From the NCBI GenBank assembly GCA_965657335.1, contig CBFHOH010000015.1, positions 6,436-70,435 on the forward strand: a DNA stretch of 64,000 bases, read 5' to 3'. The notes beneath the pieces are model-generated. The model worked only from the letters and a program-made list of their open reading frames with translations. It was not told where the DNA came from and searched no databases. The translations under genes and the position numbers were made by a program. Positions 1,457 through 20,098 of the stretch are shown here, in pieces (position 1 is the stretch's first letter; every line of letters begins with the position of its first letter). Source of the stretch: Candidatus Azotimanducaceae bacterium. Its GTDB lineage: Bacteria; Pseudomonadota; Gammaproteobacteria; Pseudomonadales; Azotimanducaceae.

Positions 1457-2119
1457 TTATTTTCCATTAAATACGATCCCGGCAACTTTGTCCGGTCCAA
1501 TCATTTCAACAGCTTGAGTGACCGTTGGCTCGTCTGCGGTGCCTGTGTCTAGCTGAAATACAACATTATCACTGACGTTTGCCAAAACCTGCACTTCACT
1601 TGAGAGCTTCATGTTCGGAGCGTTAATAAAAATGTATCTATCTGGGTAGCGCCTCTTTAATTCAGTGACTATTTCGCGCATGCGCATTGATTCGAGCGAC
1701 TCTGTGCGGGTTTCAATGACATTACCCGCTGGAATTATCCTGAGTCTTTCGATACCACTCTCTTGAATGAGGACAGAAACATCGTCGAGATCGTTATCGA
1801 TGAAATCAATAAGACCAGTGCCATTCTCCAGATCAGACAGCTGTTCGATTAAGCTGTGATTCGCATCACAGTCGATAACGATCGATGATCTCGACCTATC
1901 AAAAGCAAACACCGCGGCCAAGTTAATAGCTAATTTAGATGTGTTGCCATCTGGGGAGAGAGAGCTCAAAAGGCACACAAAGTTCTGGTAGTCAGAAATG
2001 CGCAGTAGTTTGTTTCTCAAATCTCTATAAATATTGAGGGTTTCGCGATCACGCATCCCGGGAAATATGATACCGAGCACCTCTTTTTTTTCGTCGGAGA
2101 GATGCGTGCTAGTTTGCAT
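1457..2119 (-). CDS. EpsG-like BY-kinase/MinD-fold P-loop protein with degenerate Walker motifs
   Basis: The ORF track begins at 2263, but that overlaps the upstream gene by 62 nt, so I chose the internal Met (MQTSTHL) at 2119. Fold markers are LSSLSPDGNTSKLAINLA (Walker A position), IVIDCD (Walker A') and YIFINAPN (Walker B position). Its position after the Wzz-like gene matches PEP-CTERM loci. Confidence 0.6.
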   Translation of the reverse strand: MQTSTHLSDEKKEVLGIIFPGMRDRETLNIYRDLRNKLLRISDYQNFVCLLSSLSPDGNTSKLAINLAAVFAFDRSRSSIVIDCDANHSLIEQLSDLENGTGLIDFIDNDLDDVSVLIQESGIERLRIIPAGNVIETRTESLESMRMREIVTELKRRYPDRYIFINAPNMKLSSEVQVLANVSDNVVFQLDTGTADEPTVTQAVEMIGPDKVAGIVFNGK

Positions 2120-2201
2120 ATCCCTAATGATATGCTGACGGGCGCGCCGTGATGCAATGTTGCTCGGAGGATTATTGTTCAATCGTGTGACACCGGGTGG
2201 G

Positions 2202-3716
2202 TTATGAAAGCAAATAACGAAAAGAGAAAGCAGTCCCGGTATAGCAAAGTACCGCTGCCGCAATAGATACAGAAACCAGCCGCCAGTTTTGGTACTTCAC
2301 TGCCTCCTCAGGCAGCACAGCCAGTACAATACCTGGAAACAAATCGTTAAGCTGATCTGCAAACTTTATTCTGTGGTCAAAAAATATAAGCGCGATCAAA
2401 ATAGCGAGAGGAATAATAGTCCCTAGTATCGGCCCTGCGACAACGAAATGGAAAAACCTTGCGCCGGTGGGCAGCACAGGGAAAATTGCGGGTTCCAAAA
2501 TTTTATAGGTTACGCCTTGTCCAGCCAGATCGAGCGTCATCGATATTCGCGCGCGTTCTTTCCTCTCAAGCAAGTCCTCGTATATGTTCTTGGTGACGCT
2601 ATAGTCCCTTGTTAGCTCTGAAAGGTCTGCCTGATTTGCAGCAACCCGGACTCTACGTTGGTATTGTTCTTGCAAACGGTTTTCGTTGGCTGCCAAACGA
2701 TGACGTTTTGTTTGAACAGTGACTTTAGCTTCGGAGAGCTGCCCACTTAAATCCTCGTAGATGGGATTGAGGTTTTGTTCACCTGTTAAATCAGAAGACC
2801 CTCCAATAGTGCTTTGGGAGGCGTTTTCGACTTCGATAATTGTCCTCTTCACGTCTTGAATTTGTAGCTGCATATCAACGACGTCTGGGTGTTCATCGCG
2901 GTAGTTTAATCTGAGCGTGTCAAGCTGCGACTCAAGTTGCGCGAGTCTGTCTCTATAGACTCGCGCATTGTAATCATTGTTTGAAAACCGGGACTCATTT
3001 GCTAGTTGTATTTCTAGTGCAGCAATCTTCACTTCCTCAGCTTCGATGTCGATGGCGATCTCTTCAATGGTTGTTCGCAAGCTTGAAATTGAGGAACTTA
3101 CTTGCGAATCGATCCCATCAACGTTTGCAGCTTCAAAAGCCTTGAGTCTGTTTTCAGCTTCTACGAGCTGGCTCTTATATGACTTTACCTGTTCGTCTAT
3201 GAATGTATACGCGCTCTTGCTCTCTGCGCGTTTATTCTGCGCGCTCTCCTCAATGAACAGGCTAGTGACCTTGTTGACGACCTTGAAACTCGTGTTGGGG
3301 CTTTTATCGTTATATGAAATGGTAATGTAATTGCTCGCTGGCGCAGTAAGTGTGATCGTTTTGCGCAACTCGGTCATGGCCTCTTCCATTTCATCGGTGC
3401 CAGTCACGATACGCTGATTGCCCATTGTTGCCTTTACTACTCGGTCAAGTAGGCGTGGTGCGAACATTGTTTCTTGAACGATCCGGATTCTCTCATTTTT
3501 AGGCACCGTGACGGCAGCCTGGCCCTCCAGTAGTGGCTTAATGACATTTTGGTTGTCAGCAAAAATTGTGACTGAGGTCTCATACTTTGGTTTGAAATTC
3601 ATGCCTATGATAAGAACCGAAAAGCTAATCAATGCGCCACCCGCAATCAACCATAGCATTCGGAGTTTTACCTGCTTCTGAACTTCGCGAAGGTACTGGA
3701 ATATGACAATATTCAT
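2202..3716 (-). CDS. Polysaccharide chain-length determinant (Wzz/EpsF-like)
   Basis: 504 aa. It has an N-terminal TM (LWLIAGGALISFSVLIIGM), a long coiled-coil periplasmic region and a C-terminal TM (FFHFVVAGPILGTIIPLAILIALIFF). This is the PCP topology, and the gene follows the exporter gene. Confidence 0.75.
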   Translation of the reverse strand: MNIVIFQYLREVQKQVKLRMLWLIAGGALISFSVLIIGMNFKPKYETSVTIFADNQNVIKPLLEGQAAVTVPKNERIRIVQETMFAPRLLDRVVKATMGNQRIVTGTDEMEEAMTELRKTITLTAPASNYITISYNDKSPNTSFKVVNKVTSLFIEESAQNKRAESKSAYTFIDEQVKSYKSQLVEAENRLKAFEAANVDGIDSQVSSSISSLRTTIEEIAIDIEAEEVKIAALEIQLANESRFSNNDYNARVYRDRLAQLESQLDTLRLNYRDEHPDVVDMQLQIQDVKRTIIEVENASQSTIGGSSDLTGEQNLNPIYEDLSGQLSEAKVTVQTKRHRLAANENRLQEQYQRRVRVAANQADLSELTRDYSVTKNIYEDLLERKERARISMTLDLAGQGVTYKILEPAIFPVLPTGARFFHFVVAGPILGTIIPLAILIALIFFDHRIKFADQLNDLFPGIVLAVLPEEAVKYQNWRLVSVSIAAAVLCYTGTAFSFRYLLS

Positions 3717-3718
3717 TT

Positions 3719-4405
3719 TTAGAAGCTATTTTCAGGAACGGTAATGATGTCTGATGGAAGCAGCGTGTAGTTTGTCTCAAGATTACCTTTAGCGAGAATG
3801 TCATCAAGCCTCACGGGATAAACTTTTAATTCTTCCCCTTCTTGACGATAAAGAAGTGCACGGTTGGCGTTCGCGAATGGTGTAAGTCCACCAGCCTGAA
3901 GGACAAAATCAAGTACGGTTAGGCCCCTACGGTAAGAGATTGAGAGTGGGGAGTTAATTGCACCTGTAATTCTCACCCGTTGCAGATATTCAGCGCTCAC
4001 AGCGCTTAGCACGGAGACTGTTACAGAAGGTTGTCTTACAAAACTGTTAAGTCCGTCGGAAATCCTAGCAGCAAGGGACTCGGTTGTTTCTCCGGCTGCC
4101 TTTATATCTCCAACTAAGGGTACTGAAATGTCCCCGCTAGGTAACACGATAACATTTGTAGAAAGGTCTGGGTTTCGCCAAACGCTTACTTTAAGCGAGT
4201 CGCCCACGCCGATTTTGTACTCTTCAAGCAAACTCGCGTTTGTTGGATCAAGCGTTTGCTTCGTGTCCATTTCGGATGTTGCTTGCTGGGGGGTTGTACA
4301 GCCTGCTGTACCCAATATCAGCATAAGTGCGAAAACGAAATTTGTAAGGGTGGAGCAACGTAATTGGATCGCTAAGTTTTTACGGGTAGAACTACGGTGA
4401 AGCAA
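3719..4405 (-). CDS. Polysaccharide export outer-membrane lipoprotein (Wza/EpsB-like)
   Basis: 228 aa. Lipobox LGTAGC; Poly_export-like YKIGVGDSLKVSVW and ISVPLVGDIKAAG; SLBB-like RITGAINSPL...GLTVLDFVLQAGGLT. Confidence 0.75.
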   Translation of the reverse strand: MLHRSSTRKNLAIQLRCSTLTNFVFALMLILGTAGCTTPQQATSEMDTKQTLDPTNASLLEEYKIGVGDSLKVSVWRNPDLSTNVIVLPSGDISVPLVGDIKAAGETTESLAARISDGLNSFVRQPSVTVSVLSAVSAEYLQRVRITGAINSPLSISYRRGLTVLDFVLQAGGLTPFANANRALLYRQEGEELKVYPVRLDDILAKGNLETNYTLLPSDIITVPENSF

Positions 4406-6396
4406 CTTCCTTCTCCTGGTTGACTTGTTACTGAAACTCGGCCGCCGAGCTTACTCAAAATTTGTTGGTACTGGTATGCTCCGATTCCCATGCCGAGTGT
4501 TTTCTTCGTTGAATCAAAAGGTTTGAATAGCCGTTGATCAATAAACGCTTGATCCATGCCTTTGCCGTTATCGGTGATTATGCAGGCTACCTCTGAGCCG
4601 CATATGTTTACTTCAATGGCGATTTGCCCATCGTCTTGAGTTGCTTCCTGCGCATTGCATAAGAGATGTGTAAAGGCCATCGTTAAGTTTTCAAAATCAG
4701 CGGCAACGAATATCTCTCCTACCGGTTCTATAATTTCGGGTATCGGTCTTTTTTGGCTGCACCTAGTAAGCGATGCATCGATCACCTCCGCCAGCGAAAC
4801 CCGCTCAAGTTCCCCTTTATCCAGATCAATGGCATTTTTTGAGCTTAACTTCAGTACCATTCCGTTCATCTTTTTAACCGAGTGTGCGATGGTCTCTATT
4901 GCATCTGCGACAAACTCCGGGTTGTGCATAAATCTGGAGGCGTTCTGGACGACGAGCGCCTGTTGTGCAATGAGGTTTTTCAAGTCGTGCATAACAAAGG
5001 TGGTAAATTGGTGATACGCGTCAAATTGTTGGGTAACCATTCGGTCGTTCATCAGCATTTGGTATTCGACGAAGTTGCTAATTTGTTTGCCCACGAGACG
5101 AAGCAATTGAAAGTCCTCCCAGTTGAAGGCGTCTGCGTGATGGGAGCCGCCCGAGCGGGGTGTGGTCTGATCATTTGCGACGATAATAAAACCAGTGATC
5201 TTGTCATCACCGCTTAGCGGTAAGATAAAGAGTACATCGTCACTCTCGCATAGATCCGGAGGAATCAGCTCGTTGTGTTTCGTCTTCGCAGCCTCCGTTG
5301 CTTGTGGCACGTATATCCAGTCTTCAGTAAACATTTTGTCAAAAAATTGCTGGTGCTGAGTAATATCGATCGGGCGGAGGTCTGCGTTCATGCCAACGGA
5401 AAAAGCATTGCGCGAGTAGCCATTGTCATTAACAAAGCAAGCACCGGATTTTGACTGAAAAACCGGTAAAAGGGCTTGCAGCGCGATAGCAGCATAGTCG
5501 TCGCTGTGCTTGCCAAGAGATAAACGCTCACTCAGCTTTCTCCATTCGTCGTAATAGTCGTATTTAGCCTGAAAAAAGTGTCTATCTACGAATACTCTCA
5601 TCTTTGCGCGGCGGGTAGATGAGGCAAGATTAAATCCGACGAGTAATACGCCGAGGAACAGAAAAAACGGTTGCGCGATCAAACTGATTTCACCGTCAAT
5701 CAACGCAACGAGATAGCTCATGGAGGCGACAGACAGCAGAATGCCGCCAGCGAGTACGAAGCTAGATGTAGTGAATGCAAAGGGCCGAGAAAACTCAACT
5801 TTTTTTCGCTGTGTGTCAGTTGGGAGTACGACCAGAGGTGCGACAAGCAGAATTAGACCGAGGGTTGTATGACCGAGTGCACGTGCTTGCAGAAGCTCTG
5901 GTGTTGCCGATCCATAAATCAGGACGTAGGAGTAGAGATACAGGTTGTATAAGAAGAACGTTCCGACAGAAAGTGCGGCAACCTTGGCTAGCCCATGCGT
6001 ATTTCTAACCAATTGTTCCGCGATCAGGAGTGTGCCGATGCAGCAGAACAGATAAAAGTAGAATTGCAATTGGGTTGGGCTTTCTGATCCATTTGCTGAT
6101 AAAAATACACCAAAAACCGCGAGTAGTGGTATTGCCCAGAAGATATGTGTTTTTGCGTCAAGCTCTACCTTGCCTGCGTTGCTCCTAAACTTGAGCAAAA
6201 AGCAGCTCGACCAAACCGCGATATGTATAAAGTCCATCGTATAGCTCTGCCACGAAGTAATACTCCAGATCGCTGAGAAGAGAAAACCGGGCAGGAAAAG
6301 ATAGCCACCTCGTCTTAGCACGAGAGAATATTCAATTGCGACAAGTGTGAAGAGTGCTGCGCCGGAAATTGCGCTAACGCCGACAATGCTTGTCAT
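4372..6396 (-). CDS. prsK: PEP-CTERM system sensor histidine kinase (PrsK-type)
   Basis: 674 aa. The N-terminal third is polytopic membrane, followed by a central GAF-like region, H-box FVMHDLKNLIAQ and HATPase motifs NAQEAT, ITDNGKGM, GMGIGAY. Size and architecture match PrsK, and the gene is embedded in the XrtA locus. Confidence 0.75.
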   Translation of the reverse strand: MTSIVGVSAISGAALFTLVAIEYSLVLRRGGYLFLPGFLFSAIWSITSWQSYTMDFIHIAVWSSCFLLKFRSNAGKVELDAKTHIFWAIPLLAVFGVFLSANGSESPTQLQFYFYLFCCIGTLLIAEQLVRNTHGLAKVAALSVGTFFLYNLYLYSYVLIYGSATPELLQARALGHTTLGLILLVAPLVVLPTDTQRKKVEFSRPFAFTTSSFVLAGGILLSVASMSYLVALIDGEISLIAQPFFLFLGVLLVGFNLASSTRRAKMRVFVDRHFFQAKYDYYDEWRKLSERLSLGKHSDDYAAIALQALLPVFQSKSGACFVNDNGYSRNAFSVGMNADLRPIDITQHQQFFDKMFTEDWIYVPQATEAAKTKHNELIPPDLCESDDVLFILPLSGDDKITGFIIVANDQTTPRSGGSHHADAFNWEDFQLLRLVGKQISNFVEYQMLMNDRMVTQQFDAYHQFTTFVMHDLKNLIAQQALVVQNASRFMHNPEFVADAIETIAHSVKKMNGMVLKLSSKNAIDLDKGELERVSLAEVIDASLTRCSQKRPIPEIIEPVGEIFVAADFENLTMAFTHLLCNAQEATQDDGQIAIEVNICGSEVACIITDNGKGMDQAFIDQRLFKPFDSTKKTLGMGIGAYQYQQILSKLGGRVSVTSQPGEGSCFTVVLPVKT

Positions 6397-6677
6397 AGAT
6401 GTCTCGTGGGTCGGTCGCCGGACCGTTTATCACCGAGGCTTTTGGAGCGACTATCAGCTAAAAGGCGCATTTTGAGGAAAGCTCCCAAGCCGATTTTGCA
6501 GGGTAAATCGCTTTTTATGTTCCCACGAGTGTATGTGACAGATTTCATGGCGTGATAATCGATCAAAAATGTCGTAAAATGCAAGAATTATTTTATAAGC
6601 GATTATTTACATAATTATTATTGATTAATTCTTTGATTATGCATTAAATCGCAAACCGCGACATCAAGAGGTTGAGC

Positions 6678-8195
6678 ATGAGTTTCCCATACGAGATTTT
6701 CCAGAATAGAAGTGATCCTGCCGAATCTCCCGAGGTTTGGGATACCCATGCAGTGCATCAATTGCTCAACAGCAAAGGCGAGAAAAAATCTCTCAGAAGC
6801 ACTGAAAGAGCCCTTTCGAGCAGCGGATTGTTGCCGGAAGCCGTTCAGGTAAACGAATTGCTCGACGAATATGGCAGGCCGCCCAGGTCGGGCGTTGTAT
6901 CGACCTTAGAGTCGGGTGCTAAGAAAAAGCGAGATCTTTCTCTTGTTGTACAGACTCATCAACACGCATCGACAGGGTTGGTGCTCTTCGCAAACGATGG
7001 GCGTGCGGGGCGCAGATGGCTATTTTTGGGAAAAGTGCCTGATAGCAATGAATTGGAATTGGCTTTAAGGGCGTTATCTGACGGAAGAGACGCGATATTT
7101 TGGCCTCATGGCGAGGTCACGGCGGCATTTCGCAAATTAGCGCAAGTAAAAAAAGCACACGAATTGGTTTCCGACCGAGGCAACAAGATAGTGCTAGGCG
7201 TAAGTGCCTACCAACCAGCGATTGTTGGTAACAGCAGCGAACAACAAACAATGATGACTATTTCAAACGAGGAACAAATAGTGAGCGAATCAAATCAGGG
7301 GCTTTCGCATCTGGACAGATTGGAAGCCGAGAGTATTCACATTATGCGTGAAGTGATGGCACAGGCCGAAAACCCTGTCATGCTTTACTCTGTGGGTAAA
7401 GATTCTTCAGTGATGCTTCATCTAGCCAAGAAAGCGTTTTATCCGAGCCCGCCGCCATTTCCGTTGATGCATGTTGATACCAGGTGGAAGTTTCAGGAAA
7501 TGTACCAGTTCCGCGATCAAGCCGTCGCCGAAAGTGGTATGGATTTGATCGTTCATATCAACCCGGAAGGTATTGAGAAAAACATTAATCCTTTCGATCA
7601 CGGAAGTGCTTTGCATACAGATGTGATGAAAACCGAAGGTCTTAAACAAGCGCTAGATAAATATGGTTTCGACGTGGCATTTGGTGGCGCCCGACGGGAT
7701 GAAGAAAAAAGTCGAGCAAAAGAACGGGTGTTTTCTTTCAGAACAAAAACACATCGTTGGGATCCGAAAAATCAACGCCCGGAATTGTGGAACCTCTATA
7801 ACGGTTACAAAACGAAAGGAGACAGTATTCGCGTATTTCCCCTGTCAAACTGGACCGAGCTAGACATCTGGCAATACATCTATCGAGAGAACATCCCCAT
7901 AGTGCCACTTTACTACGCAGCCGAAAGACCCATAGTAGAACGCGACGGGATGTTGATTATGGTCGATGACGATCGTATGAAGCTGCACAAAGACGAAAAA
8001 ATTAAAATCAAACAGGTCCGATTTCGAACGCTTGGCTGTTACCCGCTAACCGGTGCAGTTGCGTCCGATGCTGACGATCTTTCATCAATTGTGCTTGAAC
8101 TTTTGCAAAGTAGAACTAGTGAGCGTCAGGGAAGAGCGATTGATTCTGACTCGTCAGGCTCAATGGAAAAGAAGAAACAAGAGGGGTATTTCTAA
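6678..8195 (+). CDS. cysD: Sulfate adenylyltransferase subunit 2 (CysD) with a ~190-aa N-terminal extension
   Basis: The canonical CysD core starts near 7251 (MMTISNEE...[33 protein letters not shown], a PP-loop) and runs to [11 protein letters not shown]. The same frame stays open back to 6672. An AAGAGG SD at 6665-6670 precedes the ATG at 6678. Confidence 0.85.
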
Positions 8196-10132
8196 TGGCT
8201 GCATCCAAGAAGGCTAGAGCAGGTTCGCAAGACGTAGTTGAAGCATCGGCAATGAAAACGTCGGCAAAGACAATCCAACAGCGAGTTGATGAGTACATCG
8301 AAACGCAAAGTGGTCTTGATTTGCTGCGTTTTATTACCTGCGGCAGCGTCGACGATGGAAAGAGTACTCTGATAGGCCGCATGCTCTACGAAGCGCAAAT
8401 GATTTTCGAAGACCAAGTTACATCGTTACGCAGCGATTCCAAAAAAATGGGAACACAGGGTGGCGAAATAGATTTTGCACTGCTGGTGGATGGCCTTGCG
8501 GCAGAGCGAGAGCAAGGTATCACTATCGACGTTGCGTATCGCTTTTTTAATACGGATCACCGAAAGTTTATTGTGGCGGATACACCTGGTCACGAGCAAT
8601 ACACGCGAAATATGGTGACGGGCGCCTCGACTGCCGATGTTGCAGTGATACTACTAGACGCAACGCAAGGAGTGCTTACTCAAACTAGAAGGCACTCGTT
8701 TATCGCGTCTTTGTTGGGTATCAAGCACGTCGTGCTTGCTGTCAACAAAATGGATCTGGCGAATTTTGACAAAAAGACCTACGACGATATTGTCGAGGAA
8801 TACAGAGCGTTCTCAAGAGATCTAAACTTCGAGACGATTACCGAAATACCTATGTCAGCGTTGGAAGGCGATAACGTTATTCAACGATCCAGTAAAACGA
8901 CCTGGTATTCAGGACCGACTCTGCTTGGTTTCCTTGAGACGGTTGAAGTCGGTCACTCTCAACTTGACCATCCATTCCGGTTTCCCGTGCAGTGGGTCAA
9001 TCGTCCCAGTCATGAGTTTCGCGGCTACACCGGGACCGTCGTCGCGGGTCAGATTGAAAAAGGTCAGCCTGTTAGAGTCTTGCCCTCGGGTGAGATAGCA
9101 AACGTCGATGAAATCGTTCTCTACAAAACCAAACTTGACAAGGCGATAGCGGACCAGGCCGTTACAATTACCCTCGACCGGGAAGTCGATATATCTCGCG
9201 GTGATGTCATCGTTGCAGCCGACGAGCCTTGTGAAGCGTCGGACCAATTTGAGGTTACGTTAGTCTGGATGGATCAAGAGAAAGGTTTTATCGGCCGAAA
9301 CTACTGGATGATCGTAGGTACGACCCGGGTTAATGCAACAATCAGCGATATCAAATTTAAATATAACATCAATACCTTCGAGCACATTTCCAGTCAGTCT
9401 CTTGGCCTCAATGAAATCAGTGAGGTGACCTTGAGTCTTGATAAAGATGTGCCCTACGAGGCCTACCAAGCATGTAAGGCGATGGGCGCATTCGTACTTA
9501 TCGATAGATACTCGCACGCCACCGTTGGTGCGGGGATGATCAATTTTGCACTGCGTCGCGCTGAAAACGTTCATCGCCAGGCGTTAGAAATTGACAAGAA
9601 AGCGCGAGCAAAACTCAACGGCCATCCTGGACGTGCGCTTTGGTTTACCGGTTTAAGTGGCTCAGGAAAGTCTACGGTTGCAAATGCACTCGAGCAGGCG
9701 TTGCATGAGAAAGGTGTGCATACCTACATTCTTGATGGCGACAATGTGCGTCACGGGCTTAATCGTGATCTTGGCTTTACTGACGCGGACAGAATCGAAA
9801 ATGTGCGGCGAGTCGCTGAAGTAACGAAATTAATGGTCGACGCTGGGATTGTTGTTATCACCTCATTTATTTCGCCATTCCACTCAGAGCGACAGATGGC
9901 GAGAGAGTTGTTTGATGCGGGAGAGTTTGTTGAGGTTTATGTGAACGTGACGCTTGATCAGGCAGAAGAGCGTGATCCAAAAGGTTTGTATAGAAAAGCT
10001 AGAAGAGGAGAGCTGCCAAACTTCACGGGAATCGACAGCGCTTATGAGACGCCGGAAAACCCGGAGATTGAATTGAAGACAGGTGAGCGTTCAGTCGAAG
10101 AGTGCGTCGAACAGATTTTGAAGTACTTATAA
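8195..10132 (+). CDS. cysNC: Bifunctional sulfate adenylyltransferase subunit 1 / adenylylsulfate kinase (CysN-CysC fusion)
   Basis: GTPase motifs [17 protein letters not shown] and NKMD. The C-terminal APS kinase carries P-loop [11 protein letters not shown]. Its ATG overlaps the cysD stop (TAATG). Confidence 0.9.
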
Positions 10133-10428
10133 TGGGTTTTTCAAACACTGAAAGCGCTGGTAAAAATGAGCGCCTAACTGAAGCGCCTTACAAAGAAAGC
10201 CATCTTCGTAGTTTGCTAAAAGCGACCTCTTGGCGCGTGCTGGCGACGCTCACGACAACGATTATTGCCTATTTTATCACCGGCGAAGTGAAAACCGCGC
10301 TCACGATAGGCAGTATTGAATTTGTTCTCAAGTTTGTCATTTATTATCTACACGAAAGAGCCTGGCAACTGGTTCCGAGGGGCGGGATAAGAAGGCTGGT
10401 TTATCAGATTTTTCCGGCGTTAAAATAA
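10132..10428 (+). CDS. DUF2061-family small membrane protein
   Basis: SHLRSLLKATSWRVLATLTTTIIAYFITGE...FVLKFVIYYLHERAW is typical of DUF2061, which I recall as commonly adjacent to cysNC. The ATG at 10132 overlaps the cysNC stop. The ORF-track start at 10102 is probably too far upstream. Confidence 0.6.
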   Translation: MGFSNTESAGKNERLTEAPYKESHLRSLLKATSWRVLATLTTTIIAYFITGEVKTALTIGSIEFVLKFVIYYLHERAWQLVPRGGIRRLVYQIFPALK

Positions 10429-10503: not shown

Positions 10504-13119
10504 ATGCCTTCGTTTCGTTGGATAGAGAATATCCTGCCGATTATTTACGCCGTGTTTTTTCTCAGTGCCTGTGGGGGTAAGACGGAAGGGCCAAAAGTCG
10601 ATATTAGTCCATTTCTAGCTAATTCAACTGAGTTCCTCGACGTTGGCCAATTTCAGGCGGCAATCATTGAATCACGCAATGCGATTCAATCTGCTCCTGA
10701 CGATCTACGCGGGTATATTGCCCTGGCGAATATATACATAGAAATTGGCCAGCCGAAAGAAGCGATAAAGTTATTGGAGCCCTTTGACGGATCGTCTGCT
10801 GACTTCTATCTCACCCAAGCGACAGCTTATTTGCGTTCCGGGAAGTTACGTTCGGCGGGTGACACCTTGGCTGCTGACGTTGCTGTATTTGCTGCCCGTC
10901 AGGTAGATTACGAATTGCTCAAAGCCGAACTCGAGTATGCCCGTGGTCGGCTTGATGAAGCAGAAAAGGCATTCGAAGTTGTCCTCGCAGGTGATAGACA
11001 AAACATAGATGCTGCTATCGGCATTGCGCGGATTGATGTTGCTCGACGAGATTTCGAAGCGGCAGAGATTAAACTCGAAGCGGCGCTAATACAAGCGCCG
11101 GCAAACCCGATAGCGCTGCTTTTTGCAAGCTCACTTCAGGCACGCAAAGGTAATTTGACTGAAGCTGAGGACCTCTTGATGGAAGCAGTTTCAGCGACAC
11201 CAAACACAGACATTATCACGCCGGTTCGTTTTTCGGTTTTAACTGCGTTACGTGACAACCTGACCCGACAGGGAAAAACCAGCGAGGCGATGATTTATTC
11301 GGAAATACTGGCTGAATCTTCGCCAGGAGCCAGAGAAGTTAATGCCCAGCTTCAGCAAGCCATGGAGGCGCTCGAGCAGAGTGATTTTGAGGGTGCCAAG
11401 TTAATGCTTGGAGATATTCAAGCAAAGGTGCCTAGTTCCGAGAGAGCTGGCACGATGCTAGGCGTTGTTGAGTTTTTGCAAGGCAACAACGCCGAAGCGG
11501 TAGAACAATTTGAGCAATTTGTCGATCCTGAAACAGCTTCCGCAACCGCGCTACAGATGTTTGCCATGGCTGAGCTCAAACTGAACCAGCCTCAAAAAGT
11601 CCTTGATCAGCTGAGCAAGGACATTGATAACAGTTCGGACGCGAAGCTAGTGGCGCTTTTTGGTATAGCTTCTGTCAGTGCAAATCTGCCTGAGCAGGGG
11701 GAAGGCTACCTCAAGAAAGCTATCGCGCTAGACCCGGACGATGGTCGTGTTAGGTTGGCGCTTTTGAGATTGTACAATGGACGGGGTGAGCTAGATAAGG
11801 GACTAGCGCAAGCCATGGCGGCATTCAAAAGTCGGCCGGAGGATGCTGTTGTTCAAGCTGCCTATGTCGAGCAATTGATGCTCTTGGAGCAGCAGGTAAA
11901 AGCGGCCGATGTCGTAAAAGGTATTCAATCAAGCTATCCAAACTCACAGGAAACGCAATTGTTAGTGGGTCGTTTCTATTTGAGTCAGGGTGATACAAAA
12001 AAAGCGACCCGCATTTTTGAGCAAGTATTGGCGCTGGGCGAGTCCCGATCTGCAAGACATCAAATAGCGCGCATACAACTTGCAAACCGAGATTTTCAGA
12101 AGGCGGAAGCCAGTTATCGAGGGTTGATTGAGCTAGACCCGGAAGACGACGTTGCTTACAAGGGACTGATGACCGTATTCGAGGTGCAGGATAAAAAAGA
12201 CGGCGGTATTAAAGAGCTTATGAGACTCTCGGAATCAAGCGACGCCGTGATGCCAAGATTAGTGTTGGTAGAATTCTACGGTAGAAACGGTAATTTCGAC
12301 GATGCTTTCGGTTTGCTCGCGCGGATTGACCCCCCGCTTCCGGCGGCTGGTGAGCGGTTGCAACAAACGCTTTATATTGCACTTGCTGAGCAGCAATTTA
12401 ATAACCAAAACGTTGCTGAGAGTCGGCAGACCATTCTTGAGGGTTTGTCTAATTCACCGGATAACCCTAGATTATTAGCCTTGTTGGTAAGTGTTGAATT
12501 GCGAGCTAAAAATCAGCAAGAGGCGGAGAAAGTTTATGCCGGGCTGACTGAAATTGTCCCTAACGCACCTATCTTGGCAATCTTAGCCGGAGATATTGCG
12601 GTCGCGAAAAATAATCTCGTGGAAGCGGCGATAAACTACAAACAAGCTTGGAACATGGCGCCCTCGGATCAGGTGGCGATCAAGTATTTCGCTGTTCTGA
12701 GTCGCCAAACGCCGATTGACAGTAAGGAAAGTCTACGTTTTCTGCTGGACTGGGAATCGAAGGCGCCCGACAGCATGCTGGCTAAGTTGAGTAAGGCGGG
12801 GCACTATCTTCAAACAGGTGAGACCAGTTTAGCGCAGCAGGGATATGAGTCCTTACTGTTGGCCAATGACGACATAGCAGTCGCACATAATAATCTTGCT
12901 TGGTTATATGGAGAAAAAGCACTGACCAGGGCCTTGGCAGCAGGAAAGAGAGCTTATGAGCTAGCGCCGCAAAATGGTGAAATAGTGGACACTTATGCTT
13001 GGTTTCTCTACAAAAGCGGCGAGTTGGTTATGGCAAAAGATTTGATGGCCAAAGCTGTCGAGCTTTCTCCCGATAATGAAGAGATTAGGCAACATTTTGA
13101 GGCGGTTTTTGAGCAATAA
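10504..13119 (+). CDS. prsT: PEP-CTERM system TPR-repeat lipoprotein (PrsT-type)
   Basis: 871 aa. Lipobox FFLSACGG, then TPR-like repeats along the whole length. The size matches PrsT (~900 aa) and the locus context fits. Confidence 0.7.
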   Translation: MPSFRWIENILPIIYAVFFLSACGGKTEGPKVDISPFLANSTEFLDVGQFQAAIIESRNAIQSAPDDLRGYIALANIYIEIGQPKEAIKLLEPFDGSSADFYLTQATAYLRSGKLRSAGDTLAADVAVFAARQVDYELLKAELEYARGRLDEAEKAFEVVLAGDRQNIDAAIGIARIDVARRDFEAAEIKLEAALIQAPANPIALLFASSLQARKGNLTEAEDLLMEAVSATPNTDIITPVRFSVLTALRDNLTRQGKTSEAMIYSEILAESSPGAREVNAQLQQAMEALEQSDFEGAKLMLGDIQAKVPSSERAGTMLGVVEFLQGNNAEAVEQFEQFVDPETASATALQMFAMAELKLNQPQKVLDQLSKDIDNSSDAKLVALFGIASVSANLPEQGEGYLKKAIALDPDDGRVRLALLRLYNGRGELDKGLAQAMAAFKSRPEDAVVQAAYVEQLMLLEQQVKAADVVKGIQSSYPNSQETQLLVGRFYLSQGDTKKATRIFEQVLALGESRSARHQIARIQLANRDFQKAEASYRGLIELDPEDDVAYKGLMTVFEVQDKKDGGIKELMRLSESSDAVMPRLVLVEFYGRNGNFDDAFGLLARIDPPLPAAGERLQQTLYIALAEQQFNNQNVAESRQTILEGLSNSPDNPRLLALLVSVELRAKNQQEAEKVYAGLTEIVPNAPILAILAGDIAVAKNNLVEAAINYKQAWNMAPSDQVAIKYFAVLSRQTPIDSKESLRFLLDWESKAPDSMLAKLSKAGHYLQTGETSLAQQGYESLLLANDDIAVAHNNLAWLYGEKALTRALAAGKRAYELAPQNGEIVDTYAWFLYKSGELVMAKDLMAKAVELSPDNEEIRQHFEAVFEQ

Positions 13120-13243
13120 ACGCGCTTTTTGACCAAACAATCCAATTAATTCCTCAAAACGTGACCTGGTTCAAATAAGTGATGCAATAAGTCAGCTTAT
13201 ACTGTTTACTTAGGTAAAATCTCGGTCGGGAAGGGGCAGTTTT

Positions 13244-14173
13244 TTGACTTCGTTGTTAAACCAAAACGCAATCGCTAACTCAGGAGAGCATGGACCTGAC
13301 GTGCTTCATTTTCCAGTCCGAAGTGCTTCAAGTGGGTTGGATGCGCCGGTTTCCCCGGAACTGAGAGAAAAGCCCACAACGCTTTACCATAAAATTAGCC
13401 GTTTTGAAGTCACAAAAGAAGATTTGGCTGCGGGTCAAACCGCGTTGCTGTACAGAGAGTATTTGGGTAACACCGATGTGCCTGATCGTGAAAATCTGTA
13501 CCTCGAGGTGCTCAACGATGTCGTACGAGGCGTCTCATCCTCGGCAAGCTTGCTGCCATTTATCGTTTACGAGCCAAATAGAAAGCTGGTTTCGAAAGCC
13601 GTCGGTGATTTTTTGTCGCACCGAAATTGTAACCTCGATGACGAGTTTGCTGGCGTCCATGAAGTCGTAGAGATCCTAGTGGGTAGCCACGCAGCGAATA
13701 AAGGCGCGATTCTGGCAGGACTTGTTGCTGTCGGGGATCGTCGAATAAACGCTGTTGCGCGCGCGGCTCGTCATTTGCTGACACCGGAAGATATTCGTAG
13801 TTTCTCTAGATACCATATCAATAGAATCCGATCTTCCTCTGTTGAGTTTTGTTTGGATTGGCTGATTGAACTCAATCAGGGAACCGACCGCTTAGTGGTC
13901 GCTGATATTGGATGCGCGCTGATGCTCATGGTCTTTCATGACGAGCTCGGTTTTGTAGAAGACCTATCCGAAATAAACTATGTTGGCTTCAAAAACACGA
14001 AGGTTTTGCAGACAAAGACGTTTGAGAATTATTACTCTGAAATTATGCCAATCTTGAAATATCTCAAGGGCTGCGAAGGCTTCGAAACAATTATCCAGAC
14101 AGTGATTGATGCTTGGCAGGACCACGAGTTTAAGGCTGCTGAGATGAGAGCTCAAGCCGAAGCTGAAGCCTAG
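13244..14173 (+). CDS. Hypothetical protein, paralog A of an unrecognised family
   Basis: 309-aa ORF with a TTG start preceded by GGGAAGGGG. I recognised no family. It is clearly homologous to the convergent neighbour at 14358-15407. A hairpin terminator follows. Confidence 0.6.
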   Translation: MTSLLNQNAIANSGEHGPDVLHFPVRSASSGLDAPVSPELREKPTTLYHKISRFEVTKEDLAAGQTALLYREYLGNTDVPDRENLYLEVLNDVVRGVSSSASLLPFIVYEPNRKLVSKAVGDFLSHRNCNLDDEFAGVHEVVEILVGSHAANKGAILAGLVAVGDRRINAVARAARHLLTPEDIRSFSRYHINRIRSSSVEFCLDWLIELNQGTDRLVVADIGCALMLMVFHDELGFVEDLSEINYVGFKNTKVLQTKTFENYYSEIMPILKYLKGCEGFETIIQTVIDAWQDHEFKAAEMRAQAEAEA

Positions 14174-14233
14174 CGCGGCGCCTATCCCCGCTGATCACCC
14201 CTGATCATCGAAATATGATAATACAAAGATTGT

Positions 14234-14262
14234 AGCCATCGATTGAGATGGCTGTTTTCGTT
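14234..14262 (+). terminator. Rho-independent terminator after paralog A
   Basis: Stem AGCCATC (14234-14240), loop GATTGA, stem GATGGCT (14247-14253), followed by GTTTTCGTT. Confidence 0.55.
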
Positions 14263-14357
14263 GACATTGTGGCGGAAGGCGCTGCTTGGAGAGTCGAGCT
14301 TGAGTGACCATGCCTCGAGGTGAAGAAGCCCACCTGTTTCTTGTCAAAGGTAGAAGT

Positions 14358-15407
14358 TTAACGGCGTTTCATTGTCCTTCGCGCGCTTTCACGGCGGCTT
14401 GACTGTCGGCGGTCGATGAGTGGCGTAAGGTTGACGATGCGCCGATCACTGGCGCGCCGGTCAGAATTTTTACGGCGGGTTGTGGCCCTTCTTCTTTGTT
14501 CAGCCTGATTGAAGGAATTGCTAGTTGGGTTCCTCAACAACTCAATCATCAGGTCGAGTGACGGTATGTGGGCCCTTGAGAGAGTTTCTATAATTGGCTG
14601 AAATTTTTCTAATGCCCGCTGCAATGTGACTGATGCATCAATATCTGCTGTTGGAAAACCATACGGACCAAAATTGTGATGCAGGTTTTTTACGCGTAAC
14701 CCCGGCTCGTTGGCGATGGTTGAAGAAATTGCAGATGCGATTTGAATAGCCACGCTAAACTTCTTTTTCGTAACAAGATCTACCAGCCAGGTTAGGCAGA
14801 ATTCAATTGTACACTCGTATAATTCAGGTATCGTCGCCGCGGCAAATGCCTTTGCTTCCATTGGCGATATTGAGCTTCTAAGTGGTCTCAGTGCGGTGCA
14901 AATCCGTCTGTCCCCGAAACATGCCATCGCGCTTATCACTGCACCGTGGTTGGCGACACGGCCAGCGTCAAGCAGACCAATAAGGTCTTCCGTGGCGCTT
15001 AAGGGTCGCTTGAAGCTGACTCTGCGATTCCTGATATATGCGTGAACCGCAGGGGTCGTGATGGTGTGCTTGGTCTCAAAGCGGATGACCGGAATCAAGG
15101 AAACTGCGTCCAATTCTGCGGCTTCAACTTGGTCTAATATGTATTGTAGAAGCTGTTGACGCTGACCCGCGGTGGTGTCCGTCAGCATTTGTGTGTAGAT
15201 GAACTTCAGGCTGTCAAACTGGAGCTTAGATGATTGGAGGGTCAATTGTTGGATATTAAACAGGAGACAATCAACGGCCAAAGGCATTTCATCGCTAAAA
15301 ATTTCTTGCAATAGGTTTCCGCTGCTCGAGCGCGGTCCATTTCTCAAATCTCGTGGTTGATCAGTAAGTCGCTTATTCATCGCGTTTACTGCCTGTTTCA
15401 TCGACAC
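14358..15407 (-). CDS. Hypothetical protein, paralog B, with an arginine-doublet-rich C-terminal tail
   Basis: 349-aa ORF with a GTG at 15407 or an ATG at 15401. The central region aligns with paralog A (GDRRI..., EFCL.WL..L). The last 49 aa contain 17 Arg, arranged as one RRR triplet and seven RR doublets. Confidence 0.6.
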   Translation of the reverse strand: MSMKQAVNAMNKRLTDQPRDLRNGPRSSSGNLLQEIFSDEMPLAVDCLLFNIQQLTLQSSKLQFDSLKFIYTQMLTDTTAGQRQQLLQYILDQVEAAELDAVSLIPVIRFETKHTITTPAVHAYIRNRRVSFKRPLSATEDLIGLLDAGRVANHGAVISAMACFGDRRICTALRPLRSSISPMEAKAFAAATIPELYECTIEFCLTWLVDLVTKKKFSVAIQIASAISSTIANEPGLRVKNLHHNFGPYGFPTADIDASVTLQRALEKFQPIIETLSRAHIPSLDLMIELLRNPTSNSFNQAEQRRRATTRRKNSDRRASDRRIVNLTPLIDRRQSSRRESARRTMKRR

Positions 15408-15591: not shown

Positions 15592-16214
15592 AATATCTTA
15601 CGTTTGTGAACCCCTCTCCGAGGATTCCTAATAAGCCGTTGATGACATTAAGTGCCCCTGTAAATACTAGCAATAAGTGGGCCAGTATAAAAAACACAAT
15701 ATAAACAATGGCTTAAAGAATTTTTTGTCAAATTGGTTTTCTTTTGTAAGCTGTTTCGACATATCGGGTAATAATTAGGTCAAAGTGTTGAGTTTCGTGG
15801 CGGGAAACATCACCCGTTAGGGAATATCAACACGCTCTTGCCTGGTTTTGCCGCTTTTTTTCGTCACTGTTGCATTTTTCTGTAAATTTCATCGACAAAA
15901 ACACAGCGTTGCTAGAAAATTTAGCGATTCAGAACAGTGCACAGAGAACAGGTTTGATTACAAACGTCCGTGAAATTGGGATGTTTGCGGATACGCTATG
16001 ACTTGTCCTTGTTCAACGTTTGATGGTTCTATTCTGCGGGTCATTGCTTTCGGGCTGTTTAGTCGAGCTGTTAATGAGCAGTTTTTCATCGTCCTCCCCG
16101 AGCAGTCAGTCAATCATCCATCGCTTGTGTTCATATAGCGATAAAATCAGCGTGCCAAAATGTGTGAAAGCGAGTGGCACCGGGCGGTAGTTTTTGCTAG
16201 AACATCAAACGATG

Positions 16215-16234
16215 TAAAAAAGACGCGAGCGCGT
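16215..16234 (-). terminator. Putative short terminator directly after the 542-aa gene
   Basis: On the minus strand it reads TAA-CGCGCTCGCGTC-TTTTTT. This is a short GC palindrome (ACGC/GCGT, 4-nt loop) followed by T6 and overlapping the stop codon. Confidence 0.35.
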
Positions 16235-17862
16235 TAGTAACGGCCTTTTCTTCTGTTAGATAATCGGGGTGTCGCAGCAAGGTCTTTGGCTGGTTTGCCG
16301 CGTTTTTCCCAAATCATTTTGACGAATTCCCGTTTAATGCCATGAATCACCTCGGGTGTTTGAGCGCTGCGTAGTTGTTTCTCCAGTGCTAGCTGTTTTC
16401 TGGTAATGATAAGGTCAACCATATGTTCCTTATTCTTTACTAGCTCCTGCTCAAGGGAGCGATAGTCCACATCTGTCGTGATTTCAGCTTCAACTCTACG
16501 TGTGATTGAATGGATAAAATTCTCTACGTCTCGATGTTCTAGGTCGCTATTTCTACGTCTCGGATCCATCGAACGTTTTGATTTTATCGTAGATCTGAAA
16601 ACCCTGAGTTCGTGTTGCCATTCAGAACATTGTCTAAGGATCGGTCTTAGGGCATTAAACGCAGCAATGTCATCAAAATCGTTTTCGAATTGATGGTGAT
16701 TGCCTTCTCTCATGACGATGGAAAAATTCTGTTTAAAGTCGGCCCATTCAGTCAGGCGCGCCTTGTGATCATGAGTGAGCAGGGCTTCAATTGCTTGCTT
16801 CTGATCAGTTCGTTTCTTTTCTGTGTCTCTGGCCAACCGCGATTCAATTGACTTTATATGTTCCTGAAGTAACTGCGTTCGTTCGAGCGCAGGAATATTA
16901 TTTGCTTCCATATCGGCCAACTGTGCCTCAAAAGCCTCCATCTCCTGCTTAACCTCCTGAAACTTTTTCTTCTCACAGAAATCTTTGAGTTCATTAAATC
17001 GCCAGTAGTGAGAAAATCTGTTTTGCATTACAACGAGAAAATCGTTTTGCAACAGTCGAATGATCGACTCATTTTGACCTTCGTCCACATCGGTAACGCG
17101 ACTGTTTATCTCGCGAATCATATTCGCGTATTCAGCAAACCATTCCCGTGATCGACCAAGAAACTGATAGTCGTCTGCTACTTGTGACAATTGATCATCT
17201 ATCTCATCAAATGGTAGATCACCAATACGTTCGATATAGTCGTTAAATAGTTTGTATTGCTGTCGCTGGTAAGAGGAGAATTCTTCTCTAACTTTCCTCG
17301 TTTGAGGAAAAATGCGGGATGCGCGCTCGTTGTTGTCAAAAAGGCCCGATGGTTTGTACGCCTCAATCTCCTCTTTTTTGCGAACATATACTTTGTATTC
17401 GTTCTCAAAAAACTGTGCACGTTGTGAATTCGCAAATCTGCCTTTTACATAGTCCCAATCAAGCACCTTGGGTGTCTTTGCGGCAAAAACTCTGTCCCAC
17501 CAGCTGACCGGTAATTCTTCCATCATGCGCGACAAGAAATTTCTTTCCAGAAACGCCAGCATACTTGTGCGTTTTTGTTCTTGCTCTTCGATAGAAAACA
17601 GCTCGTCGCTAGGCGTTGAATCTTTTACATGCTTGAGACTTTTATTCAGATCTGTTCGATGAATGCTCCAGAGTTTGTCTAGATCAAGCGCTGACCATGA
17701 ATCTTCCAGTCCGGTAAGTGTATTGCGCCAGGCTTTGGATTCCTCTGCCGATTCCCCATGGGCTTCGAGTTCATCAGAGATTGATCGATCATTGGTCTGG
17801 TCCTCATTGAGCCCGTCATCAGCAGTATTGTGTTTTCTGCCAAATATGTGTTTCCAAAGCAT
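16234..17862 (-). CDS. Hypothetical 542-aa charged, helix-rich protein
   Basis: The long ORF has no antisense competitor of comparable size. I chose the Met at 17862 (MLWKHIFGRK), which is preceded by AGGAAC. The track start at 18018 adds an implausible N-terminus. No P-loop, TM segment or known motif was recognised. Confidence 0.6.
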   Translation of the reverse strand: MLWKHIFGRKHNTADDGLNEDQTNDRSISDELEAHGESAEESKAWRNTLTGLEDSWSALDLDKLWSIHRTDLNKSLKHVKDSTPSDELFSIEEQEQKRTSMLAFLERNFLSRMMEELPVSWWDRVFAAKTPKVLDWDYVKGRFANSQRAQFFENEYKVYVRKKEEIEAYKPSGLFDNNERASRIFPQTRKVREEFSSYQRQQYKLFNDYIERIGDLPFDEIDDQLSQVADDYQFLGRSREWFAEYANMIREINSRVTDVDEGQNESIIRLLQNDFLVVMQNRFSHYWRFNELKDFCEKKKFQEVKQEMEAFEAQLADMEANNIPALERTQLLQEHIKSIESRLARDTEKKRTDQKQAIEALLTHDHKARLTEWADFKQNFSIVMREGNHHQFENDFDDIAAFNALRPILRQCSEWQHELRVFRSTIKSKRSMDPRRRNSDLEHRDVENFIHSITRRVEAEITTDVDYRSLEQELVKNKEHMVDLIITRKQLALEKQLRSAQTPEVIHGIKREFVKMIWEKRGKPAKDLAATPRLSNRRKGRY

Positions 17863-18090
17863 GAGGTTCCTAGCGTTTTGAATGATGTATTGCTGATGCG
17901 CTGGAGAGCGTATCAATATTCCGATGATTCTTGAAGGGGTTAGCACCACTGTTAGGCGATCGCGACAAGGAGTGTCCGTAAATTCGACCCAAATAAATAG
18001 TGTCGAAAAACTTAACACTCTCAGGGTCGCTTCTGAAGCGCGTCAAATTCGCAGTTCTCATGTCATTGAAATTAATAGCAATAATAACTA

Positions 18091-18106
18091 TGGCACGGGG
18101 ATTGCT
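18091..18106 (+). promoter_or_regulatory. Sigma-54 (RpoN) -24/-12 promoter
   Basis: TGGCACGGGGATTGCT has GG at 18092-18093 and GC at 18104-18105, separated by exactly 10 nt, matching TGGCACG-N4-TTGCW. It lies 56 nt upstream of the PEP-CTERM gene ATG. Confidence 0.7.
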
Positions 18107-18161
18107 TAAAGTGTTTAAAAAGTAACAGCGAAAAATCAAGCTTTAATATGAATCGAATAGC

Positions 18162-18980
18162 ATGAAAAACTTGGTAGCAGTAGCGGCATTAGTGACAGTC
18201 TCGGGGTTGGCATCTGCGGGTCCCGTGACCATTACCGATGAATATTGGGGTGGCGATCGCCATAGCTACAGTGACGTCATCGGTGCGGCAGGAAAATTCG
18301 ATATCGTTAGTATGGAAGCAAATATCGATGTGCTGACAAAAATTATGACGGTTGATATCGCAACAAATTTTGGTGCTGCCAGCGGTGGATTAGGATCTTT
18401 TCCCCAGTACACTCAATCATCTTTGAGTAAAGTTTCTGGTATCGCCCAGGGCATTGGGTTTGGCGACTTGTTCCTGTCGTCAACTGGTTGGAATCCCAAT
18501 ACAACCGGCTCTATGTACGAAAATGACAATCACTCGACGGGCACTAAATGGGATTATGCTGTTTCTCTTCATGATCGCTGGAATGGTGCTGGTTCTGCCG
18601 CAACACTTTACAAGCTCAACGGTGCGACAAACGACGACAATGTTTACCTGAGTGATGATTTCCTGAGCGGAGGTACTTTTCGAAACGGCCAAGAAGTGGC
18701 TGTCGATATCACAAGCAATACGGTTCTCGCACTCGCTAACTCAGCGTCAATGAATGCGAGTAACAATGGTCATGTTGTTTTTACCCTTGATCTCGACGGT
18801 ACCGATCTCGAAAATATCGCGCATTACGGTATTCACTGGAATATGACCTGTGGAAACGACACGATTGAAGGGCAGTATAATCACGCGGTGCCAGAGCCTA
18901 GCTCACTATTTATTATGCTATTGGGGCTGGCCTGCATAGGTGGCGCTAGCTTTCAACGCAAAAAGACACAGACAACTTAA
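18162..18980 (+). CDS. PEP-CTERM sorting-domain secreted protein (exosortase substrate)
   Basis: Signal peptide MKNLVAVAALVTVSGLASA. The C-terminus VPEPSSLFIMLLGLACIGGASFQRKK has the PEP motif, a TM helix and a basic cluster. Confidence 0.85.
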   Translation: MKNLVAVAALVTVSGLASAGPVTITDEYWGGDRHSYSDVIGAAGKFDIVSMEANIDVLTKIMTVDIATNFGAASGGLGSFPQYTQSSLSKVSGIAQGIGFGDLFLSSTGWNPNTTGSMYENDNHSTGTKWDYAVSLHDRWNGAGSAATLYKLNGATNDDNVYLSDDFLSGGTFRNGQEVAVDITSNTVLALANSASMNASNNGHVVFTLDLDGTDLENIAHYGIHWNMTCGNDTIEGQYNHAVPEPSSLFIMLLGLACIGGASFQRKKTQTT

Positions 18981-19309: not shown

Positions 19310-20098
19310 TTAGCGAGGCACGAGTCCTTCAACCTGCAATCGGTGAATTCTGCGCGGTTCATTATCCGCGTGGTCGTGCACGGCGAAATGTAAAACCGAT
19401 CGATTGTCCCACATGACAAGATCACCGTCTTGCCAGTGGTGGCGTGTTTGAAATTCAGGACGAACGCTATGCTCGAATAAAAATGAAAGTAGGGACTGAC
19501 TTTCTTTTGTGCTCCAACCGTGAAATTTGGTGGTGAAGGCTCGACAGACAAAGAGGGCTTTTTCACGAGTCTCGTCATGCTCTCGAACAACCGGATGGAC
19601 AGCGCTTGGTGCCTTTTCAGATGCCTGTTTATATTGCGTTGCTAGGTTGACCGCCGAGTGTTCCGCGCTAAGGTCGAGCAGCATAGACTTAAGACCTTCG
19701 GAAAGTGTGTTGAATGCTAACACTTGATTAGAAAAGGCCGTATCCCCGCCAATTGATGGTGTTTCTCGCGCGTAGAGCATCGTGAACTTCGGGGGCGCGC
19801 GGTTGTAAGTCATATCCGAATGCCAGTGCTGATTAATGTCTCTTTGCTTGCCAACATTACGCAATTCGATAATTTCGGGATAGTTTTCCATCCCAGCATA
19901 GGGATGTTTGACTAAATTCCCCCAGCGTTTGGCGAAGTCGATATGGTCGTTTTCAGTCAGATGCTGATCTGGCAATACAATGACCTTGTGATCAAGAAAA
20001 TGCTGGTTGATCTCCAGCCACTGACTTTCCGTCACAGCCCGAACGTCTATCCCTTCAATTCGGGCTCCAAGTGGTGCGGCTATTCGCGTTACTTTCAT
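19310..20098 (-). CDS. TauD/TfdA-family Fe(II)/2-oxoglutarate dioxygenase
   Basis: 262 aa. HWHSDMTY (HxD), GGDTAF and WDNRSVLHFAVHD are all typical of the TauD family. Confidence 0.8.
   Translation of the reverse strand: MKVTRIAAPLGARIEGIDVRAVTESQWLEINQHFLDHKVIVLPDQHLTENDHIDFAKRWGNLVKHPYAGMENYPEIIELRNVGKQRDINQHWHSDMTYNRAPPKFTMLYARETPSIGGDTAFSNQVLAFNTLSEGLKSMLLDLSAEHSAVNLATQYKQASEKAPSAVHPVVREHDETREKALFVCRAFTTKFHGWSTKESQSLLSFLFEHSVRPEFQTRHHWQDGDLVMWDNRSVLHFAVHDHADNEPRRIHRLQVEGLVPR

Follow-up and report, generated by a model that had tools for sequence, protein, structure and literature searches.

We analysed a 64,000-nucleotide (nt) stretch of DNA from Candidatus Azotimanducaceae bacterium (GCA_965657335.1, contig CBFHOH010000015.1, positions 6,436–70,435, forward strand; hereafter the window), which contains a convergent pair of paralogous genes, here called A and B, directly downstream of the XrtA/PEP-CTERM system gene prsT. 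A and B most likely encode cytoplasmic proteins, so far undescribed, with an accessory role in the PrsK/PrsR/PrsT circuit; we read the sequences in this way because B is preceded by a PEP-CTERM promoter box, because the pair is linked to prs genes in three different gene orders, and because the two proteins have a distinctive charge pattern. The best explanation overall, and in our judgement a probable one, is that these soluble α-solenoid paralogs form an accessory module of the XrtA/PEP-CTERM regulatory circuit. We are rather more confident of the claim that they belong to the Prs system as an accessory module and that B is part of the PrsR/sigma-54 regulon, and clearly less so of a feedback or partner-switch mechanism, which we put forward as a tentative model. 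A first-pass annotation of this DNA had suggested an uncharacterised accessory or regulatory module of the exosortase system, and both the prs linkage and the absence of a match to any characterised family support that suggestion. Because B carries a PEP-CTERM box, the suggestion can be sharpened: B would be a member of the PrsR/sigma-54 regulon that is placed beside the regulators themselves.

The box of proteobacterial PEP-CTERM genes consists of a 17-nt motif 1 that ends in TTTACA and is sometimes repeated, a spacer of 32–92 nt (mean 63), and a sigma-54 −24/−12 motif; motif 1 has been ascribed to PrsR (Haft 2006, PMC1569441). We found each of these elements before B (Table 1): motif 1 is there twice, and 60 nt separate its proximal copy from a sigma-54 promoter with the −24 GG and −12 GC. 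Scanning both strands with the composite pattern GTCG-N6-YTWACA-N45-75-TGGC-N7-TTGC gives exactly two matches in the window, one before B and one before the nearby PEP-CTERM cargo gene, with 0.00 expected over 100 shuffles. Motif 1 alone matches three times in the window, always in the promoter regions of B and the cargo gene. The cargo gene had been described as sigma-54-driven, and it does have a perfect TGGCAC-N5-TTGC element at 18091–18105, so that the description holds at the level of sequence. Two further TGGC-N7-TTGC[AT] matches in the window lack motif 1 and are probably due to chance; one (51675–51690, minus strand) lies inside an aminotransferase gene (50490–51809) and the other (54922–54937, minus strand) inside an unassigned 439-residue open reading frame (ORF; 54727–56046).

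The box is conserved before B in other loci. The composite pattern precedes B in seven other distinct loci (L001, L004, L005, L007, L008, L009, and L018), where B is 36–69% identical to the B of the window, and it is also found before B in additional metagenome contigs. The sigma-54 element lies 143–277 nt upstream of B in seven of nine loci, and an alignment of the B upstream regions has the two motifs as conserved islands. PEP-CTERM genes in the A/B loci likewise carry the box, and the pattern is therefore valid for this clade. The long 5′ leader of B contains a further short conserved island, ATGATTCTACA (around 15530–15545, minus strand). A riboswitch was sought in the leader, and the Rfam scan of 13000–18300 gave no match; a small upstream ORF that starts at this island (55 residues, MILHL...) was rejected, as its frame is conserved only in the closest relatives. 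A third-branch homolog of 281 residues (L035, 362–1378), about 36% identical to A and lacking an arginine tail, also has a complete box upstream.

Gene A has neither a box nor a sigma-54 element upstream in 12 loci, and the same is true of prsT and of the conserved gene C next to B in every locus examined. The pair is regulated asymmetrically as judged from these promoters, because the box precedes B and not A: B is a predicted PrsR/sigma-54 target and A is not. We found no terminator-like site in the prsT–A interval, and the sequence suggests that A may be co-transcribed with prsT. The unboxed state of prsT and A agrees with findings in Aquincola, where RpoN dependence was shown experimentally for pepA and not for prsT (PMC9850573).

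The association with prs genes extends well beyond the window. With near-identical contigs counted once, the pair, or A alone, adjoins prsK, prsT, or prsR in 12 of the 15 loci of the close clade that have enough flanking DNA, and the linkage takes three forms, which bears out the expected co-occurrence of homologs with Prs/PEP-CTERM genes. The order prsK–(cysDN)–prsT–A–B occurs in the window and in L001, L004, L005, L007, L008/L022/L023, L009, and L018, the last being a 4.7-Mb contig in which the prsK–prsT–A–B order is mirrored. In L002/L012/L030, prsK is divergent from A, which is followed by B, and prsT is absent; the kinase of these loci scores 280.8 bits on TIGR02916 from a partial sequence. 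In L019 the order is A–prsR–C–B, and the PrsR scores 651 bits on TIGR02915 (cut-off 502.6). Gene content also varies between loci. In L026, downstream of prsT, a box-driven PEP-CTERM gene of 223 residues (3128–3935) separates A from B, so that the convergent tail-to-tail layout is not obligatory. The L008/L022/L023 lineage has kept A, the boxed B, and C and has lost the cargo gene. Finally, L006/L011 has A alone, directly after a PEP-CTERM gene.

The relationship between A and B is well above chance. BLASTP aligns the two proteins over 257 residues with one gap at 22% identity and E = 3e-22, and this value together with an ungapped segment match establishes the paralogy as real. The homology had been claimed by eye in the first-pass annotation, from 60-residue segments (A residue 151, B residue 152) said to be about one third identical and from an upstream SLLPFIVYE/SLIPVIRFE match; the segments do align without gaps with 21 of 60 residues identical, and five of nine residues are identical in the shorter match. 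Both ORFs, their facing orientation, and the spacer between them were likewise as described. The N-terminus MTSLLNQ of A is kept in the aligned homologs, and a database copy of B starts nine codons later, giving a protein of 340 residues.

Neither protein belongs to a family that we could recognise, as had been said of the pair, since there was no characterised match in Pfam, NCBIfam, PADLOC, the PDB sequences, or Foldseek searches of PDB and BFVD. A and B have no Pfam or NCBIfam match at E ≤ 0.1, the family profile finds no match among PDB sequences, and the PADLOC profiles for anti-phage defence are blank for A and B and also for C, so that we set aside a defence system as the identity of A and B. 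A word-seeded search yielded 36 clusters for A and 10 for B. These clusters are without exception named hypothetical and derive from genomes of uncultured marine Pseudomonadales, Azotimanducaceae, or OM182. An exhaustive profile search enlarges the family to a superfamily in which, at 50% identity, 469 clusters reach E ≤ 1e-3 and 246 reach E ≤ 1e-10. Most members are about 290 residues long; a small number carry Sel1, HEAT, or TPR repeats as fusions. Ten distant representatives have no Pfam match at E ≤ 0.1 and no informative name; in ten long fused members Pfam finds only Sel1, HEAT_2, or TPR, confined to the extra regions, and the HEAT_2 and Sel1 matches fall in the extra regions of P0076, P0135, and P0144 only. 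Across 148 representatives the superfamily has a clear signature (Y70, R82, A119, N152, G164-D165-x-R167, F202, and W206 in the numbering of A), each position being conserved at 86–99%.

AlphaFold2 gives confident models of both proteins, with a predicted local distance difference test (pLDDT) score of 84.7 and a predicted template modelling (pTM) score of 0.80 for A, and a pLDDT of 85.4 and a pTM of 0.78 for B. The two models have a common order of about 13 stacked helices and one β-hairpin, and their N-termini are disordered. Foldseek searches with the A and B models against PDB, and with A against BFVD, returned nothing at E ≤ 1e-3. The top-ranking structures are solenoids of a generic kind, from armadillo, TOG, and importin-α proteins, with E ≥ 0.013 and template modelling (TM) scores of at most 0.40, and the HEAT, HEAT_2, HEAT_PBS, and Arm profiles have no match in A, B, or the ten distant members at E ≤ 0.1. 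Hence the modelled fold of A and B is an α-solenoid of HEAT/ARM type, and we name it by type without claiming membership in the HEAT/ARM families, because the structural neighbours are generic and none is significant. The maximal 19-residue Kyte–Doolittle value is 1.63 in A (residue 217) and 1.21 in B, and the most hydrophobic stretch of A is a helix inside the solenoid in the AlphaFold2 model. The proteins thus have no convincing hydrophobic segment, and we rejected them as transmembrane or secreted proteins; the earlier statement that they have no recognisable domain, transmembrane segment, or signal peptide stands. They were also rejected as PEP-CTERM cargo, as they have no PF07589 or TIGR02595 match, unlike the gene at 18162.

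The paralogs differ in an arginine-rich C-terminal tail that is found in B. The consensus of this tail over about 45 residues in B-type proteins is RRxxxxRRxxxDRRASDRRIVxIxPxIERRxxxRRxxxRRxxxRR, with a conserved hydrophobic core, IVxIxPxI, between RR pairs. The AlphaFold2 model of B has the tail as two helices of low confidence. In about 24 B-type clusters the median charge is +11 for the tail and −12 for the core; the median charge of A-type proteins is −10.6, and the A of the window has a charge of −13.6. A tail-only profile run against 5.8 billion proteins did not find the tail as a module on other proteins, and it has no match among PDB sequences. With this layout the tail has the look of a peptide that docks on an acidic groove. 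Armadillo proteins are known to bind extended basic peptides, and an acidic solenoid with a basic tail offers a parallel to this, as an analogy only.

Table 1 Features of the A/B region in the window (window coordinates)
Feature	Position	Strand	Details
365-residue ORF, edge of exopolysaccharide cluster	356..1453	−	no NCBIfam match
XrtA-associated tyrosine kinase, chain-length determinant, and export protein genes	1457..4405	−	
prsK, XrtA/PEP-CTERM system histidine kinase	4372..6396	−	TIGR02916, 412.8 bits (cut-off 300)
cysD, cysNC, and DUF2061 gene, inserted between prsK and prsT	6672..10428	+	
prsT, TPR lipoprotein of the PEP-CTERM system; next gene upstream of A	10504..13119	+	TIGR02917, 347.5 bits (cut-off 312.2)
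Gene A	13244..14173	+	ORF, TTG start, 309 residues, acidic (isoelectric point 5.2), unannotated family
Convergent A/B spacer	14174..14357		184 base pairs (bp)
Terminator-like hairpin in A/B spacer	14232..14255	+	9-bp stem, then T-run
Gene B	14358..15407	−	ORF, GTG start, 349 residues, paralog of A
Arginine-rich C-terminal tail of B	14361..14522	−	residues 296–349, net charge +13.5
Sigma-54 −24/−12 element (motif 2) of B	15669..15684	−	TGGCCCACTTATTGCT; first base 15684, 277 nt from B start codon
Proximal motif 1 of B	15745..15761	−	TGTCGAAACAGCTTACA; predicted PrsR site; 60-nt spacer to motif 2
Distal motif 1 of B	15881..15897	−	TGTCGATGAAATTTACA; 136 bp upstream of proximal copy
Gene C, conserved	16234..18018	−	ORF of 594 residues, likely start near M53
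PEP-CTERM box of cargo gene	18001..18106	+	motif 1 TGTCGAAAAACTTAACA at 18001–18017, 73-nt spacer, TGGCACGGGGATTGCT
PEP-CTERM cargo gene	18162..18980	+	272 residues; PF07589, TIGR02595
TauD-like dioxygenase, after cargo gene	19310..20098	−	

The genes around the pair are listed in Table 1. The gene upstream of A had been called prsT, and its TIGR02917 score agrees. The pair had further been placed between prsT and a sigma-54 PEP-CTERM cargo gene; both flanking genes are correctly named, but the 594-residue ORF C intervenes between B and the cargo gene. Gene C has no match in Pfam, NCBIfam, or PADLOC. Its homologs accompany A/B in eight loci (L001, L004, L005, L007, L008, L009, L018, and L019), and in L019 the homolog lies between prsR and the B-type gene. 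C is probably a third member of the A/B module. The cysD/cysNC/DUF2061 insertion is also present in L004, L009, and L022, and it suggests a local supply of 3′-phosphoadenosine-5′-phosphosulfate, perhaps for a sulfated exopolysaccharide.

These observations can be assembled into a working model. B would be induced by phosphorylated PrsR along with the cargo, while the expression of A would follow that of prsT and not depend on sigma-54. Both proteins would act through protein binding, as helical-repeat scaffolds do, and the induced B would pair with A or compete with A for a common partner. This partner would most plausibly be the cytoplasmic part of PrsK or PrsR, because the genes of these two proteins stay adjacent to the pair. 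The basic tail could dock on a polyanion or on an acidic groove, which either A or B itself might provide, and the outcome would be a feedback loop of the anti-activator/anti-anti-activator type. In the most specific version, a paralog partner-switch, constitutive A would hold PrsK or PrsR in one state and PrsR-induced B would displace or sequester A, using the shared solenoid surface and the arginine-rich tail against A and thereby closing the loop; taken in this exact form, the proposal is speculative and, in our judgement, rather unlikely.

Several observations weigh against an accessory role in the Prs circuit. The PEP-CTERM-box regulon as defined in Haft 2006 belongs to genomes that encode PrsK, PrsR, and PrsT. 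We did not find prsR among the scanned ORFs of the window, where not every ORF was scanned; each of the further ORFs scanned for it at 22–56 kb either has a metabolic or transport function or matches no family. In L024 (1–3416), prsT–A is followed directly by tauD, a deletion having removed B, C, and the cargo gene; A can therefore function without B. The L002 lineage (prsK–A–B) has no recognisable box before B, and in L019 two perfect CRP-type palindromes, TGTGAnnnnnnTCACA, at about 4630–4710 replace the box before the B-type gene. A crp-family gene lies immediately downstream in L019. Singletons of the close clade occur in metabolic contexts (L013/L031 and L014/L036), the distant member in L016 (1–14871) lies among integrases, a transposase, GmrSD, and a HEPN–HSP70 fusion, and the context of the distant member in L017 is nondescript; the contigs of P0054 and P0056 are too short to show a context. 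It follows from the homologs in L013, L014, L016, and L017 that the fold is not specific to the Prs system: it also serves away from exosortase loci, and mobile or defence islands are a possible setting. Finally, all Prs-linked loci come from one group of uncultured marine Gammaproteobacteria (Pseudomonadales, Azotimanducaceae), and the synteny must therefore be partly inherited and not independently selected.

The alternative that survives best is that A and B serve in the cytoplasm as escorts or assembly factors, to which PEP-CTERM precursors, or some part of the exopolysaccharide export machinery, would be bound until export takes place. B would then be co-induced with the cargo because it is needed in proportion to the cargo, and this accounts for the presence before B of the cargo gene's own promoter design. 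The boxed PEP-CTERM gene between A and B in L026, the position of A right after a PEP-CTERM gene in L006, and the α-solenoid fold itself are all compatible with an escort. However, the genes conserved next to the pair are the regulators prsK, prsR, and prsT, where an escort would lead one to look for xrtA or for certain cargo genes; the boxed B is retained in the L008/L022/L023 lineage although the adjacent cargo gene has been lost; and the arginine-rich tail is left unexplained. On balance we regard an escort role as improbable, though it deserves some weight.

Less likely still is that B is a nucleic-acid-binding regulator, whose tail would bind RNA, for example the long leaders of boxed mRNAs, or DNA, with the solenoid providing specificity or recruiting A as a tail-less antagonist. 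The B tail can be likened to arginine-rich RNA-binding peptides: it carries a charge of about +11 over about 45 residues, with RRxxx repeats and arginines that are invariant in about 24 B-type clusters, and the leader of B is long (143–277 nt) and contains conserved islands. Yet the tail matches no nucleic-acid-binding family, Rfam is blank in the region, and the strongly acidic solenoid cores disfavour binding by the body of the protein.

There is little to recommend the view that the function of the pair is unrelated to the exosortase and that its adjacency to prs genes is synteny inherited in one marine lineage. The linked loci do all come from related uncultured Gammaproteobacteria, and the superfamily is found elsewhere too. 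But the link persists through three rearrangements (prsK with prsT, prsK alone, and prsR) and the box precedes B down to about 36% protein identity, which neutral synteny does not account for. Least credible of all is a second-messenger receptor, for example for cyclic di-GMP (c-di-GMP), with a tandem RRxxxR tail that would couple biofilm signalling to the Prs circuit: the several RRxxxR units of the tail resemble the first PilZ motif and the locus makes exopolysaccharide, a classic c-di-GMP target, but such units are expected from composition alone in a segment so rich in arginine, and we rejected B as a PilZ receptor, as it has RRxxxR-like units only, with no (D/N)xSxxG second motif, no PilZ match, and no β-barrel in the model.

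If A and B are accessory proteins of the Prs circuit, what is new here is a set of predicted, previously undescribed components, from an unannotated family, within the known PEP-CTERM/Prs circuit. Environmental and floc-forming bacteria widely possess the XrtA/PEP-CTERM system. To our knowledge, its regulation is hardly understood past the names PrsK, PrsR, and PrsT, and the same is true of the signal of PrsK and the role of PrsT. The papers that we found on PrsK, PrsR, RpoN, and the regulon with PEP-CTERM describe no accessory proteins of this kind. The locus yields testable candidates, first a non-cargo gene with the system's own enhancer and sigma-54 promoter, and further the tail-less paralog A beside the regulators and the conserved protein C. 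It also defines a sizeable superfamily outside Pfam, NCBIfam, and PDB, with a clear signature and a confident predicted fold. A partner-switch, if true, would mean that helical-repeat proteins form a new class of modulators for a sigma-54 enhancer-binding system; together with C, they would make up the missing cytoplasmic layer of exosortase regulation. These statements are purely computational and so far confined to uncultured marine Gammaproteobacteria.

Among known proteins, A and B are closest in architecture to the HEAT/ARM/TOG proteins (importin-α, designed armadillo proteins, and the TOG domain of SPIRAL2), with which they share the predicted stack of paired helices. They differ in that the best match has an E-value of about 0.01 and a TM score of at most 0.40, in the absence of a Pfam repeat match, and in an inserted conserved β-hairpin and a sequence signature of their own. 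CpcE/CpcF-type phycobilin lyases are paralogous HEAT-like repeat heterodimers encoded by adjacent genes. A and B resemble them in being paralogs with predicted helical repeats that are encoded side by side. Unlike CpcE/CpcF, they have no HEAT_PBS or HEAT_2 match, stand in an unrelated context, and are encoded convergently from different promoters, with no evidence of catalysis.

In regulatory terms, a parallel is offered by the proteins that modulate sigma-54 activators, such as HrpV/HrpG acting on HrpS, PspA on PspF, and NifL on NifA. In pairs of such regulators, one partner is induced by the activator itself, which creates feedback. A and B are alike in being small, predicted cytoplasmic proteins that are encoded beside, or would belong to, the regulon of a sigma-54 activator, and B would likewise be induced by the activator; they have no kinship in sequence or fold with HrpV/HrpG-, PspA-, or NifL-type regulators, and they are paralogs of each other. 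The closest comparison for B is with the PEP-CTERM-box genes (PMC1569441), including pepA (PMC9850573). B differs from these in having no signal peptide, PEP motif, or C-terminal transmembrane helix, being instead a predicted cytoplasmic helical-repeat protein, and its leader exceeds the 71 nt that they have on average. It is like them in a motif 1 that ends in (T/C)TTACA, in the 60-nt spacer, in the sigma-54 element, and in the large intergenic region that holds these sites, and like them it lies in the part of the genome that encodes PrsK and PrsT.

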